DNA from: an uncultured Victivallales bacterium
Lineage (GTDB): Bacteria; Verrucomicrobiota; Kiritimatiellia; UBA8416
Assembly: GCA_964497125.1 (NCBI GenBank)
Contig: CAZCDU010000005.1
Location: forward strand, 35,139-99,138
Length of the DNA: 64,000 nucleotides
Direction of reading: 5' to 3'
Of the stretch, positions 41,421 to 47,825 are shown one piece after another. The notes below the pieces were generated by a model. That model ran no database searches. It was not told the origin of the DNA and was given only the letters and a program-made list of their open reading frames with translations. Positions within the stretch are counted from its first letter, which is position 1. Each line of letters begins with the position of its first letter. Both the position numbers and the translations under genes were made by a program.

Positions 41421-42773
41421 CTACAAGGGCAGATCGTGTTCCTTGATTTTGCGTTGGATGGTTCTGCGTGAAAGGCCGAGTTCGTCAGCTGTAAGCGTTC
41501 GGTTACCCGCATGGCGTGCCAGTGTCTGGCGCAGGATCTCCTTCTCGATGTCCTGCAGCGTCATGCCGCTGGGGGCCGTGAAGGGGACATCCGGGGCCGG
41601 GGCATCCCGGGTGAGTGTAAGGTCGCGAGCCGATAGTGTGGGAGATGTCGACATCACGACGGCGGATTCAATGACATTGCGAAGTTGGCGGATATTTCCA
41701 GGCCAGCTTTGGGAGACGAGGGCACCGTAGAAGTCTGGCGCTACTTCGCGAATCGCACGGTCATGTTCGGCGCAGGCAGCTGCGATAAAGCGGTCTGCAA
41801 GTGGACGTATATCACCACGTCGTTCGCGAAGAGGGGGCACGGCAATGTCGACTACTTTGAGGCGATAGAGCAGGTCTTCACGGAAATCACCATTGGCCAC
41901 CAGTTCTTCCAGGCTGCGGTTGGATGCGGAAACGACGCGAACATCGACACTGAATGAGCCCTGTCCTCCGATGCGCGTTACCTTGCGTTCTTCCAATACA
42001 CGCAGGAGCTTAATCTGTACGTCTGCGGGCGCGTCGCCGACTTCGTCGAGAAAGAGCGTCCCTCCATTGGCGCGCTCGAATGCGCCCTGGTGCTGTCGGA
42101 TCGCCCCTGTGAAGGAGCCTTTCTCGTGGCCAAAGAGTTCGGACGCCAGCAGTGATTCGATGAAGGCTCCACAGTTGACGGCGACAAAGGGGCCATTGGC
42201 GCGTGGCCCGTCATAGTGGAGGGCCCGCGCCACCAGCTCCTTGCCGGTTCCGCTCTCGCCCTGGATGAGTACGGTTGCCGACGTGGCTGCCAAGGTGCGA
42301 ACCTGTTCGAGTAGGGCGACACTGACGGGGTCCTCGGCGGTCATGGCGCCGGAGCCGAACTGGCTGCGTGCGTTGGTGCGGAAACGATCCACCTGGCAAC
42401 GGAGGCGTGATGCCTCAACGGCTCGTCCGAGTTTGGTCTGGAGGTCGTCGAGGTCCAGCGGTTTCGTGATGTAGTCATAAGCTCCGGACTTCAATGCCTT
42501 CACGCTAGAATCAACGGAACCGTAGGCCGTCATGATCATGACGGGGACTTCGGGGTTCAGCTTCAGAATTGTCGTCAGCACCTCGATACCATCGATATCC
42601 GGCAGAACGAGATCAGAGAGCACAACGTCAAACGAGCCGCTCTTGAATGCTGCGATACCTTCCTCACCGGTCGCGGCCGCAACGGCGAGCATATCTCCAT
42701 CCTCGACGGCCTCGACCACGGACGCGCGTCCGTCGGGGTCATCTTCGATTATCAGTATGCGCGGTTCTTCCAT
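41421..42773 (-). CDS. Sigma-54-dependent response regulator (NtrC family: REC + AAA+ + HTH)
   Basis: REC DxxxD..K; Walker A GESGTGKE; sigma-54 contact motif GSFTGA; C-terminal Fis-type HTH. Confidence 0.85.
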   Translation of the reverse strand: MEEPRILIIEDDPDGRASVVEAVEDGDMLAVAAATGEEGIAAFKSGSFDVVLSDLVLPDIDGIEVLTTILKLNPEVPVMIMTAYGSVDSSVKALKSGAYDYITKPLDLDDLQTKLGRAVEASRLRCQVDRFRTNARSQFGSGAMTAEDPVSVALLEQVRTLAATSATVLIQGESGTGKELVARALHYDGPRANGPFVAVNCGAFIESLLASELFGHEKGSFTGAIRQHQGAFERANGGTLFLDEVGDAPADVQIKLLRVLEERKVTRIGGQGSFSVDVRVVSASNRSLEELVANGDFREDLLYRLKVVDIAVPPLRERRGDIRPLADRFIAAACAEHDRAIREVAPDFYGALVSQSWPGNIRQLRNVIESAVVMSTSPTLSARDLTLTRDAPAPDVPFTAPSGMTLQDIEKEILRQTLARHAGNRTLTADELGLSRRTIQRKIKEHDLPL

Positions 42774-42786
42774 ATTGGGGTAATCT

Positions 42787-45190: not shown

Positions 45191-45230
45191 TATCTAATCC
45201 AGCGAGGACGTACATGAAAGGAGATTTCTA

Positions 45231-47825
45231 ATGGATCTTGGACGCATGACTCAAAAGGCGCAGGAGGCGCTTCAGGCTGCGCAGGTAAAGGCAATCCGGT
45301 ATGGTCACCAGGAGGTAGACGGTGAACACCTGCTTCTGGCACTGCTCGTGCAGGACGGCGGTCTTGTGCCGCGACTCATAGAGCGACTGGGGGCCGATGT
45401 TGCCTCGTTCACGGCACGCCTGGAGCAGGTGCTTGAGCAGCGACCGCGCGTGACCGGCGGCGCCACCGAAAGTGGCAAGGTATATGTTACGCAGCGCTTG
45501 AACTCGCTTCTCGTGGCCGCCGGCGATGCCGCGAAGAAGCTGAAGGATGAGTATGTCAGCGTGGAGCACCTTCTGCTGGGCTTCGTTTCCGAAGGCAAGC
45601 AGACCGATGCGGGCAAGTTGCTGGCCGAGTTTGGCGTAACGCGTAACGGCGTGCTGGAGGTGCTGCGCCAGGTGCGGGGTAACCAGCGGGTTACAAGCGA
45701 CAACCCGGAGGGGGGCTATGAAGCGCTGGAGAAGTATGGTTCGGATCTTGTGGCCTTAGCGAGGAGCGGCAAGCTGGATCCCGTTATTGGTCGTGACGGT
45801 GAGATCCGAAGCGTGGTGCGCATCTTGTCACGGAAAACGAAAAACAACCCGGTACTGATCGGTGAGCCGGGGGTTGGCAAGACTGCCATCGTGGAAGGGC
45901 TGGCGCACCGTATTGTTCGTGGCGATGTTCCGGAGGGACTCAAAGACCGGACGATCTTCTCGCTGGATATGACGGCGTTGATGGCCGGCGCGAAATACCG
46001 CGGTGAGTTTGAGGAGCGCTTGAAAGCGGTGCTGACCGAGATCAAAGCTGCCGAAGGGCGCATCATCCTATTCATTGATGAGGTCCACAGCATCGTAGGG
46101 GCCGGTAAGACCGAGGGCTCTTCGGATGCCGGAAACATGCTGAAGCCAATGCTGGCCCGGGGCGAACTCCACTGTATTGGTGCTACCACGCTGGATGAGT
46201 ACCGTAAGTACGTGGAGAAGGACGCAGCCCTGGAGCGACGTTTTCAGCCCGTTCTTGTCGACGCGCCGACCGTGGAGGACACGATCTCCATTCTTCGCGG
46301 TTTGAAGGAGCGCTTTGAGGTGCATCATGGCGTGCGCATACAGGATGCGGCCCTGGTTGCATCGGCTGTCTTGTCGGACCGTTACATTAGCGACCGGTTT
46401 CTCCCCGATAAGGCGATTGACCTGATGGATGAAGCGTGTGCTTCGATTCGCACGGAGATCGACTCCATGCCTGCGGAGCTGGATGAGATCACGCGCAAGG
46501 TGATGCGGCTTGAAATCGAAGAGACGGCGCTGAAGAAAGAAGAGGACAAGGGCAGCAAAGAGCGCCGCGCTCTGCTACGCAAAGAGCTGGCCGATCTCAA
46601 GGCGGATGCTGACGCCATGAAGGCGCAGTGGGACAAGGAGAAGAAGGCCATTGCCGAGGTGCGGGAGCTCCGGGAGCAGATCGAGAAGGCCCGCCATGAC
46701 AGTGAAGAGGCCGAGCGGGCCCACGATTTGGAGCGTGTGGCCAAGTTGCGGCACGGCGTGATTCCCGACCTGGTGGCCAAGCTTGAGGCCGAGGAGCAGG
46801 GCATCAACCCCGAAGAACCAACGCTTCTTCGCGAAGAAGTGACGGACGAAGAGATTGCTGAGGTCGTCTCACGCTGGAGCGGTGTGCCGCTTCGACGTCT
46901 TATGGAGGGCGAGCGTGAGAAACTGATGAAGCTGGACGAGACTCTGCATGAGCGTGTGATCGGCCAGGACGAAGCCGTGAAGTCGGTGGCGGATGCCGTA
47001 TTGCGGGCACGCGCCGGGATCAAAAATCCTCAGCGTCCCATTGGGTCTTTCCTCTTCCTGGGACCAACAGGGGTTGGCAAGACTGAGCTTGCGCGCACGT
47101 TGGCTGAAGCCATGTTCGACGCTGAGGAGAGTATGGTTCGCATCGACATGAGCGAATACATGGAGAAGCACACGGTCTCAAGGCTAGTGGGTGCGCCTCC
47201 GGGATACGTGGGGTATGAAGAGGGAGGTCAGCTCACCGAAGCCATTCGACGCAAGCCATACAGCGTAGTGCTTCTGGACGAAATCGAGAAGGCACATCCT
47301 GATGTGTTCAACATCCTGCTGCAGATTCTCGAGGATGGACGCCTGACCGACTCCCAGGGGCGAACCGTGAACTTCAAGAACACGATCGTGATCATGACGA
47401 GCAACATTGGGTCGTCAGTGTTGCTTGACGGTATCGATGATGGTGGTCATCTGAGCGATGATGTCCGGGACGGAGTGATACAGCTCTTACGTGGGCATTT
47501 CCGGCCGGAGTTCCTCAATCGTGTCGATGATGTGGTGCTCTTCAAGCCGCTGGTGTTGGAAGAGATAGAACGCATCGTGGCTTTGCTTGTCTCGGAATTG
47601 AACGGTCGTCTGTCTGAGCAGGACATGGCGATAGATGTTTCTGACGAAGCCTGTGAGTTTATCGCGAGAGAGGGGTTTGATCCGGTGTACGGTGCGCGGC
47701 CCCTCAAGCGGTTCTTGCAGCAGGAGGTGGAGACTCCCATCGCACGGTTGATCGTCTCTGGCAAGGTCGCGCCGGGAGCCACGATTTCTGTCGGCGTTAA
47801 GGATGGTGCCTTGCAGATCCACTGA
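45231..47825 (+). CDS. clpB: ATP-dependent chaperone ClpB
   Basis: Two AAA+ modules ([16 protein letters not shown]), coiled-coil middle domain, 864 aa. Confidence 0.95.

Follow-up and report, generated by a model that had tools for sequence, protein, structure and literature searches.

Heat-shock and envelope-stress control is known mainly from Proteobacteria and Firmicutes, through sigma-32, sigma-E, HrcA/CIRCE, CtsR, Cpx and Zra. In the Psp (PspF-sigma-54-pspA) and Cpx (cpxP<>cpxRA) systems, the regulator gene or genes diverge from the gene of a small stress protein, which serves as the main output and feeds back on the activator or the sensor. PspF has no receiver domain and is controlled by PspA binding, while Cpx employs a sigma-70-dependent OmpR-type regulator. 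The E. coli small heat-shock protein (sHsp) gene ibpB reportedly carries a sigma-54 promoter that is auxiliary beside sigma-32. At E. coli zraP<>zraSR, a sigma-54-dependent pair is divergent from the gene of a small periplasmic chaperone that it activates; the activator binds in the spacer, and the system is now assigned to envelope stress (PMC7657598). As summarized in PMC9109919 (citing Ueki & Inouye 2002), the Myxococcus xanthus kinase HsfB phosphorylates HsfA, an NtrC-like activator of the heat-shock gene lonD. The chaperone-related passages of a 2025 survey with position-specific scoring matrices describe predicted sigma-54 promoters as enriched at chaperone genes in Planctomycetota and Bacteroidota, including those for IbpA-type sHsps (COG0071), Clp ATPases (COG0542), GroEL/ES and DnaK/J/GrpE, and report ZraR-like regulators as enriched in the surveyed genomes as well (PMC12316311). 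Here we describe a two-component system beside two chaperone genes in a 64-kb stretch of contig CAZCDU010000005.1 (the window, to which all positions refer unless a relative is named). The host, a marine bacterium not yet cultured, belongs to the Kiritimatiellota/Lentisphaerota branch of the Planctomycetota-Verrucomicrobiota-Chlamydiota (PVC) group; a literature search found no paper on stress regulation in Kiritimatiellota or Lentisphaerota.

We consider it likely that a ZraSR-like two-component system at this locus runs an autoregulated regulon for proteostasis and envelope stress that depends on sigma-54. Domain searches agreed with a first-pass annotation of the window on its four genes, in which an Hsp20-like gene (hsp20) is divergent from the kinase gene and is followed by clpB:

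41421..42773, - strand: NtrC/ZraR-type enhancer-binding response regulator, 450 amino acids, with a receiver domain (REC), an AAA+ sigma-54 interaction domain and a Fis-type helix-turn-helix (HTH)
42787..44139, - strand: sensor histidine kinase with HisKA and HATPase_c domains (Pfam) and an intact H-box
44439..45050, + strand: Hsp20-like gene, 203 amino acids; Pfam HSP20 at 30.0 bits against a cut-off of 20.8
45231..47825, + strand: ClpB disaggregase, 864 amino acids (Pfam); equivalog TIGR03346 at 1330.6 against a cut-off of 1232.1

The regulator has the full domain set of a group I bacterial enhancer-binding protein, namely a REC domain with its Asp, an AAA+ module and a Fis-type HTH (Pfam Response_reg, Sigma54_activat, AAA_lid_14 and HTH_8; E-values 3e-26 for REC, 7e-66 for Sigma54_activat and 7e-14 for the HTH). 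Its translation keeps the receiver residues EDD...LSD...T...K, which include the acidic pocket and the phospho-acceptor Asp, together with the Walker motifs and an intact C-terminal HTH. The sigma-54 contact loop reads GSFTGA, as first annotated, where the canonical loop is GAFTGA. Since the orthologues carry GSFTGA or GAFTGA by turns, the A-to-S change appears to be a tolerated variant within one orthologous series. The reading frame had initially been extended to a GTG at 42995; the start is instead the ATG at 42773, which gives 450 amino acids and agrees with metagenome gene calls. The kinase has two transmembrane (TM) helices (residues 13-31 and 189-207, from sequence and hydropathy) around an extracytoplasmic loop of ~155 residues, and a comparison of this loop with PDB sequences returned no meaningful match. 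Overall the kinase resembles ZraS/AtoS with scores under the NCBIfam cut-offs, and the best NCBIfam matches of the regulator, AtoC, NtrC and ZraR, each stay under the equivalog cut-off. ClpB is full-length, with Clp_N, two AAA+ modules, the middle domain and an equivalog-level score; its best cultured relative is Pontiella, at 77-78% identity.

Promoters and enhancer around hsp20 and the kinase gene

Sigma-54-type elements were ranked with a heuristic position weight matrix (PWM), which uses approximate weights based on the published consensus; its scores rank the sites and are uncalibrated. Elements were assigned to the sigma-54 class when GG and GC stood exactly 10 nt apart within TGGCAC-N5-TTGCW. 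Both motifs of the first-pass annotation were re-found, the one upstream of hsp20 with its single mismatch and the one upstream of clpB with its GG-N10-GC spacing, and elements upstream of the kinase gene (P_HK) and at the kinase-regulator junction were added to them:

44409..44424, + strand: hsp20 sigma-54 promoter TGGCACGGATCGTGCA; GG-N10-GC, one mismatch to TGGCACG-N4-TTGCW, PWM 15.3
45176..45191, + strand: clpB sigma-54 promoter TGGTACGCGGAATGCT = TGGTACGCGGAATGC(T); GG-N10-GC, two mismatches, PWM 14.2
44167..44182, - strand: P_HK, sigma-54-type element TGGTACTTTTCCTGCT upstream of the kinase gene, PWM 11.9
42790..42805, - strand: junction sigma-54-type element TGGCACGGAAACTGCA, in the last kinase codons and 17 nt upstream of the regulator ATG

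The junction element has one mismatch and the top PWM score in the window (16.1), and P_HK takes the form TGGTAC-N6-CTGCT. The predicted transcription start sites (TSSs) lie at ~44156 for P_HK, with a 17-nt leader, and at ~45202 for clpB, with a 29-nt leader that contains an AAAGGAG Shine-Dalgarno sequence. For hsp20, the predicted TSS at ~44435 is ~4 nt ahead of the ATG. This near-leaderless geometry (2-4 nt) is repeated in L012, L013, L015 and L018 (L numbers denote loci of related lineages), and elsewhere among the lineages the hsp20 leaders are 17-35 nt long with a Shine-Dalgarno sequence. The presence of promoters ahead of both the kinase and the regulator gene implies autoregulation. The junction element is a candidate for an internal promoter that serves the regulator gene and those behind it, although its function is less certain.

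The elements are conserved across lineages. The Hsp20-like family comprises 31 clusters, from which 18 loci were gathered, and five more were reached via ClpB and the regulator. All 15 non-redundant lineages have a -24/-12 element directly before the hsp20-like gene, and L032 and L033 add two further cases. At a background density of equal-scoring matches of 1.4e-4 per strand-base, or a chance of ~0.018 per 130-nt stretch, the joint chance of finding it in all 15 is ~1e-26. Upstream of clpB, an element is present in 10 of 10 lineages (the window, L011, L017, L023, L024, L025, L029, L030, L031 and L032), 23-60 nt before the ATG and mostly at 34-39 nt. The sequence that flanks the conserved GG-N10-GC elements of hsp20 and clpB diverges. 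P_HK and the junction element are conserved too, with changes limited to non-critical positions: near-identical copies of P_HK (TGGTAYTTTTCCTGCT/TGGTATTCATTTTGCT) occupy the same position in L017/L026, L024 and L025, and L020 has a variant. In six lineages, TGGCAC and TGC of the junction element are invariant, whereas there are differences in the spacer, in the C-terminal residues encoded there (GTETA/GTESA/GTEAA/GTEFAK/GTRPAS...) and in where the stop codon falls. This pattern suggests that selection acts on the DNA and not on the protein.

The spacer between the kinase gene and hsp20 additionally contains a paired upstream activating sequence (UAS):

44231..44249, strandless: UAS site 1, perfect palindrome GTGCGACA-GGT-TGTCGCAG, presumed site of the regulator HTH dimer
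44254..44272, strandless: UAS site 2, GTGCGTCGCAATGTCGCGG, with a good right half-site, 23 nt (about two helical turns) past site 1

The conserved form is the 17-bp GTGCGACA-N3-TGTCGCA (TGCGACA-N3-TGTCGCA), and site 1 was also detected as inverted repeat I1. With a PWM trained on other loci only, the window being left out, site 1 scored 21.5, which is the top value in the 64 kb and exceeds all 30 shuffles, and site 2 scored 15.3, second in the window, followed by 10.8 for the next best. Besides the promoter boxes, these sites are the sole invariant island of the intergenic alignment. Every locus with enough upstream sequence has the UAS ahead of its hsp20-like gene, the orthologues have a second half-site ...TGTC(G/A)C(G/A) at equal offset, and the UAS is kept where the hsp20-like gene is not beside the two-component system (L012, L018 and L028).

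Counted from the predicted TSSs, sites 1 and 2 are at about -195/-172 with respect to hsp20 and at -84/-107 with respect to the kinase operon. A dyad-symmetric UAS stands ~80-200 bp upstream of its putative target promoters. As judged from these predicted positions, the arrangement is the one expected of a divergently autoregulated system that depends on an enhancer. We are highly confident that the promoters and the enhancer are real, and we think there is a good probability, somewhat above that of the circuit as a whole, that the UAS-binding protein is the adjacent regulator.

We searched the same region for other control elements. Scans for CIRCE and HAIR were both empty near the locus, in keeping with the first-pass annotation. 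A sigma-70 consensus scan of 42600-45400 stayed at chance level, with one minus-strand match over the UAS and none before hsp20 or clpB. Rfam searches of 41300-48000 found no RNA thermometer or other family, and the predicted fold of the clpB leader was not significant (z = -1.0). With neither CIRCE nor HAIR, no sigma-70 excess and no RNA thermometer, there is no competing control of these kinds for the role.

Several further features were observed around these promoters. An 11-nt inverted repeat, CTCCGTGGCAC / GTGCCATGAAG (44404-44414 / 44434-44444), pairs the hsp20 -24 box with the start-codon region. A direct repeat, GAATCCAGCTRCGGGG, occurs twice at 20-nt spacing (44331-44366) and is found in the window lineage alone. 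One of its copies aligns (MAFFT) with the position of the -24/-12 box of the orthologues, and the alignment suggests that a local duplication may have moved the active hsp20 promoter ~57 nt downstream. Between the UAS and the hsp20 promoter lies a G-quadruplex-type run, GGGGTGAGGGGTGGGTGATGGCGGGTGGGGTGGGG (44271-44305). The hsp20-sense strand of the spacer is G-rich in most orthologues (0.29-0.41 G against ~0.2 C), L027 also has a G-quadruplex motif, and the run has a possible structural role in enhancer-promoter looping. An extra sigma-54-like element, TGGCACTGCTCGTGCA, lies within the clpB coding region at 45337-45352, ~106 nt past the ATG (PWM 13.3).

The clpB upstream region, the Hsp20-like protein and the module in relatives

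Three blocks upstream of the clpB promoter are conserved among lineages:

45051..45069, strandless: clpB dyad block A, TTGAGCCGTAATGGCGCTC, centred at about -142 from the predicted clpB TSS and conserved in a five-lineage alignment
45092..45110, strandless: clpB dyad block B, TAGGGTCATAATGACTCTG, a conserved block centred at about -101
45131..45159, strandless: GTAAC-N..-AGCAT-N-TTA, a conserved block in the interval from the dyads to the clpB promoter, with an invariant GTAA and further conserved columns next to it in alignment A2

Block A is the best match to the hsp20-UAS PWM in the clpB upstream region of the window (7.4). Block B has the frame GnGnCA-N3-TGnCnC in common with the hsp20 UAS and differs at the variable positions; at its position, L017 and L023 score 11.4 and 10.3. 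The GTAAC block, which also occurs in L032 (cttGTAACc), is a possible site for a DNA-bending protein. A symmetric form of the hsp20-UAS PWM found no match of at least 6 in the clpB region of the window, and the scores there from a looser form were weak.

The relatives provide additional insight. In the cultured Pontiella desulfatans, clpB lies among unrelated genes, apart from the regulator system. It is preceded there by TGGCACGGTCGGTGCA and, 90 nt upstream, by the canonical palindrome CTGCGACAGTTTGTCGCGG, whose PWM score of 20.0 is the top in that locus, a locus outside the training set. Upstream of clpB in L032 stands an intermediate dyad, ATGGGACATCATGACTCAT, with a score of 15.5. From these motifs, clpB is likely to be under the same control as hsp20. 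No intrinsic terminator was found on the plus strand between hsp20 and clpB, so that read-through from the hsp20 promoter is possible. Among the best 120 matches of the regulator, no Pontiella orthologue was identifiable by name.

For the Hsp20-like protein, an AlphaFold2 model built on the family alignment shows a TM helix (residues 4-27), a disordered linker, a second helix (72-92) and an alpha-crystallin domain (ACD; 107-201). The ACD is an alpha-crystallin beta-sandwich with a predicted local distance difference test (pLDDT) score above 90, and the top 50 Foldseek hits of the model were all sHsp or crystallin structures with probability 1.00. The TM segment is conserved in the family alignment, and the C-terminus has a conserved RLF or (R/L)LF. 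The protein thus departs from a soluble cytoplasmic sHsp at both ends, having a TM helix at the N-terminus and no I-x-I at the C-terminus. The mean number of K and R residues is 3.4 on the N-terminal flank of the TM segment and 1.8 on the C-terminal flank, with N above C in 13 of 16 family members and C above N in none. By the positive-inside rule, this bias predicts that the chaperone domain faces the periplasm, and the presence of HtrA in the operon of a relative fits such an orientation; we therefore regard a periplasmic ACD as probable. The 31 clusters define a small family of membrane-anchored alpha-crystallin proteins, which would be an unusual chaperone class if they face the periplasm.

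The order of the module genes varies among relatives. The Lentisphaerae metagenome-assembled genome (MAG) L032 has the order ABC < HtrA < Hsp20 <> kinase > regulator > clpB, in which the hsp20-like gene is followed by an HtrA/DegP-type protease gene (Trypsin and two PDZ domains) and an ATP-binding cassette (ABC) ATPase gene (397-2607 of that locus). This rearranged module suggests envelope quality control. L020 has the order regulator < kinase <> Hsp20 > ABC. L033, a Kiritimatiellae contig, has five Hsp20 genes next to those for the kinase, the regulator and the ABC transporter; four of the five are extra (three soluble-type and one TM-anchored) and are accompanied by a Zn-peptidase. The sHsp operon of L033 stands behind a sigma-54 box, TGGTACGACTTGTGCT, and a GTGTCATAATGACAC dyad, and its ABC transporter operon has a strong sigma-54-type element of its own, TGGCACGAATTCTGCT; these L033 features are at 2678-5630 and 9376-9391 of that locus. 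The linkage of kinase and regulator with hsp20 and/or clpB outlives three rearrangements, with Hsp20 identities across lineages of 35-60%. The common theme of the module genes is protein quality control, in the envelope and in the cytoplasm.

In the window, the gene array continues downstream of the regulator gene:

36528..41368, - strand: ABC-2-type transporter genes (ATPase, permease, GldG-like auxiliary protein and DUF4340; Pfam)

These genes begin 52 nt past the regulator gene. In L023-L026 and L033 this set of four likewise comes after the regulator gene, and in L015, L020, L021, L022 and L028 it comes after the hsp20-like gene instead. We regard them, at lower confidence, as a probable co-transcribed member of the module. 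Directly downstream of the kinase-regulator-ABC-DUF4340 array and in the same orientation lies a Bat-like cluster (26903-36531, - strand) with a MoxR AAA+ ATPase, a DUF58 protein, two VWA proteins and BatD, and this order is repeated in L033. No other chaperone genes (dnaK, groEL and similar) were found among the larger open reading frames scanned in the window.

Three observations concern the assemblies. In the Victivallales MAG L011, a 458-residue ATPase-like reading frame (7908-9284) lies between the hsp20-like gene and clpB, beside a run of N, and clpB retains its own sigma-54 box at 9747. L023 and L025 are two versions of the module on two contigs of GCA_046766155.1, with Hsp20 identities to the window of 67% and 61%; either this assembly mixes several genomes in one bin, or a single genome carries two paralogous modules. 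Finally, the window contains a perfect direct duplication of 1,903 bp (6009-7911 and 9517-11419), which holds a ThuA-domain fragment and a GFO/IDH/MocA oxidoreductase gene of 429 residues. The two copies flank an IS200-like (Y1_Tnp) transposase gene (8333-9349), and the duplication is either a very recent event associated with this insertion sequence or an assembly artefact.

Proposed circuit and alternative explanations

In the circuit we propose, the membrane kinase with its periplasmic loop would phosphorylate the NtrC-type regulator. Regulator dimers would bind the palindrome TGCGACA-N3-TGTCGCA and the second site 23 nt off in the kinase/hsp20 spacer, as well as the related dyads upstream of clpB. 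The regulator would form an AAA+ ring and, via DNA looping, remodel the sigma-54 holoenzyme waiting at the -24/-12 promoters. The predicted output comprises the membrane-anchored alpha-crystallin (Hsp20-like) protein, with its chaperone domain probably in the periplasm, and the cytoplasmic disaggregase ClpB. It would also include the kinase/regulator operon, through positive autoregulation from P_HK and perhaps from the internal promoter before the regulator gene, and probably the downstream ABC transporter. That the adjacent pair controls a chaperone regulon through sigma-54 and an enhancer-binding protein was proposed in the first-pass annotation, and it gains support from phylogenetic footprinting and from the linkage in rearranged gene orders.

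With respect to the signal, we give envelope or misfolding stress roughly an even chance. The periplasmic loop of the kinase and the membrane-anchored, probably outward-facing Hsp20-like protein make envelope or protein-folding stress, with heat as one cause, at least as likely as heat alone. By analogy with the roles of ZraP and CpxP for their kinases, the anchored protein might even be both an effector and a co-sensor of the kinase, an extension that we consider speculative and rather unlikely. In that case, it would keep the periplasmic loop of the kinase inactive in unstressed cells. Unfolded envelope proteins would titrate it off the kinase and turn on the sigma-54 programme, which would join periplasmic quality control (the anchored sHsp, HtrA and the ABC exporter) to cytoplasmic ClpB. 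If true, this would be the first periplasmic sHsp-based stress sensor, and in Kiritimatiellota and Lentisphaerota a single two-component system would take the place of separate responses through sigma-32 and sigma-E/Cpx.

Several points weigh against the proposed circuit. The sigma-54 scans gave a divided answer over the 64 kb: five of the seven best PWM matches fall within 42790-45352, but consensus matches with at most two mismatches number 11 against 11.7 expected. There is thus no excess, and the case for the promoters rests on position and conservation. At hsp20, a GAGGA at 44427-44431 would sit upstream of the predicted transcript, and with a ~4-nt leader translation would have to be leaderless, unless a second promoter is used. 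A search for a UAS within 300 nt of the junction element found none. Intragenic sigma-54 sites are common in other bacteria, and many are inert in E. coli (PMC4591121); the extra sites at 45337-45352 and possibly 42790-42805 may be inert as well. The pairing of the regulator with the UAS we infer from adjacency. Of the activator sites sought upstream of the promoters, as the first-pass annotation had proposed, the two in the kinase/hsp20 spacer are strong, while the clpB dyads of the window match the hsp20-UAS PWM weakly (7.4 and 0.4, where the 90th percentile of the background is 7.6); the shared control of clpB is therefore argued mainly from relatives.

The sigma factor and the topology of the anchored protein raise further points of this kind. 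A search for rpoN found no RpoN box in the 64-kb window, and its presence in the genome of the window is expected from relatives: in the Kiritimatiellae MAG L031, an rpoN gene of 477 residues (12015-13448; Sigma54_AID/CBD/DBD) lies 3.4 kb downstream of a sigma-54-preceded clpB, with mfd between them. The topology drawn from the charge bias is only suggestive, and a partnership with ClpB would better fit an ACD that faces the cytoplasm.

These points can be read in other ways. If the -24/-12 matches were chance, non-functional sequences, hsp20 and clpB would be served by sigma-70-family promoters, with TTGTAAC...TnnTAn as a candidate before clpB. The match count at chance expectation, the short hsp20 leader, which is awkward for a sigma-54 start site, and the conserved block just upstream of the clpB -24 box, which is readable as a weak -35/-10 pair, would all agree with this. 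Nevertheless, GG-N10-GC is held at a fixed distance in 15 of 15 hsp20 and 10 of 10 clpB lineages while the flanks diverge, an enhancer-type palindrome accompanies the elements at typical UAS distances, and the sigma-70 scan, at chance, gave no plus-strand match. We consider sigma-70 control extremely improbable.

Alternatively, the sigma-54 promoters may be real and the activator may be a different one. An enhancer-binding protein encoded elsewhere could bind the UAS, and the adjacent pair might then run something else, for instance only the downstream ABC transporter and Bat-like genes, its proximity to hsp20 and clpB being inherited synteny. The UAS and promoter are indeed kept at hsp20-like genes without an adjacent two-component system (L012, L018 and L028) and at the unlinked Pontiella clpB; moreover, the binding of the regulator to the UAS is a prediction, and the regulator belongs to a large family, with 662 relatives at E<=1e-120. 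However, the position of the UAS in the shared spacer, 84-107 nt from P_HK, is the classic autoregulated layout, and inherited synteny alone is unlikely to explain a linkage that outlives three rearrangements at 35-60% Hsp20 identity. An unlinked activator of this kind appears quite improbable. A slightly better, though still low, probability attaches to a second, paralogous activator that would run clpB via its own dyads (GAGNCAT-N-ATGNCTC type), leaving to the adjacent regulator, in the window organism, only the hsp20-like gene and the kinase operon. The clpB dyads of the window clade do differ systematically, with GGGTCA/GAGGCA halves in place of GCGACA, and they score low with the hsp20-UAS PWM (window 7.4, L024 5.3, L025 2.1); a clpB-type dyad also stands before the soluble-sHsp operon in L033. 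Yet both motifs are built on the frame G-N-G-N-C-A-N3-T-G-N-C-N-C, intermediates such as ATGGGACATCATGACTCAT in L032 (15.5) occur, clpB of P. desulfatans has the canonical hsp20-type palindrome, and in L032 clpB directly follows the regulator gene. A single regulon under the adjacent kinase and regulator is the reading that we retain.

Comparison with described stress circuits

The first-pass annotation had called the arrangement an unusual heat-shock control logic. This was overstated, given the precedents in zraP<>zraSR, HsfBA-lonD and the 2025 sigma-54 survey. The closest architecture to the locus is ZraPSR of E. coli and Salmonella. Both systems combine a membrane kinase that has a periplasmic domain with a REC-AAA+-HTH sigma-54 activator, and in both the pair is divergent from a small envelope chaperone gene. 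Divergent sigma-54 promoters, activator sites in the shared spacer and autoregulation, which is predicted here, are common to them as well (PMC7657598). In addition, several regulator orthologues were labelled "HydG", the old name of ZraR, by JGI annotators, and the ZraR structure is among the best PDB sequence matches of the regulator.

The two systems are nevertheless not orthologous. The regulator scores 378 bits against a ZraR cut-off of 760, the kinase 120 bits against a ZraS cut-off of 479, and AtoC and AtoS, also under their cut-offs, score above ZraR and ZraS. The sensor loop of the locus has no detectable similarity to anything solved. Here the divergent gene encodes a TM-anchored alpha-crystallin protein, whereas ZraP is a soluble periplasmic protein of the CpxP/Spy family. 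The predicted regulon at this locus also reaches cytoplasmic ClpB and, in relatives, HtrA, soluble sHsps and the ABC transporter. We considered Zra orthology and rejected it on the sub-cut-off ZraS and ZraR scores together with the alpha-crystallin, rather than CpxP/Spy, nature of the partner.

HsfBA, as outlined in the source cited above, is alike in that a histidine kinase and an NtrC-like activator turn on a heat-shock or proteostasis gene. In that account HsfB is a hybrid kinase, whereas the kinase here consists of HisKA and HATPase_c without a receiver domain. The target described there is the Lon protease and here it is an sHsp and ClpB, and the account, which concerns another phylum, gives no divergent chaperone gene or shared UAS architecture. 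The 2025 survey makes the same general claim of sigma-54 promoters at chaperone genes. Kiritimatiellota and Lentisphaerota are not mentioned in it, and its chaperone-related passages name no cognate activator for these genes and describe neither an enhancer sequence nor an operon architecture; the present locus supplies a candidate activator with a predicted binding palindrome, as well as predicted autoregulatory promoters and a membrane-anchored sHsp.

The Psp and Cpx systems resemble the locus in that regulator gene or genes are divergent from a small stress protein; Pfam scans and gene calls found no PspA or CpxP homologue at the locus. Unlike E. coli ibpB, which reportedly has no dedicated two-component system, hsp20 here has a conserved sigma-54 promoter that appears to be the principal one.

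The locus offers a concrete circuit, with a named candidate activator, a predicted 17-bp binding palindrome and four promoters. Its core regulon would be the anchored sHsp, ClpB and the system itself, probably joined by the ABC transporter, HtrA and soluble sHsps. The palindrome and the -24/-12 pair provide a search pattern for the regulon in any genome of the clade, including those of cultured Pontiella species. The wiring is conserved, and the locus is a variation on known stress circuits whose hallmark outputs are a membrane-anchored alpha-crystallin protein and ClpB.

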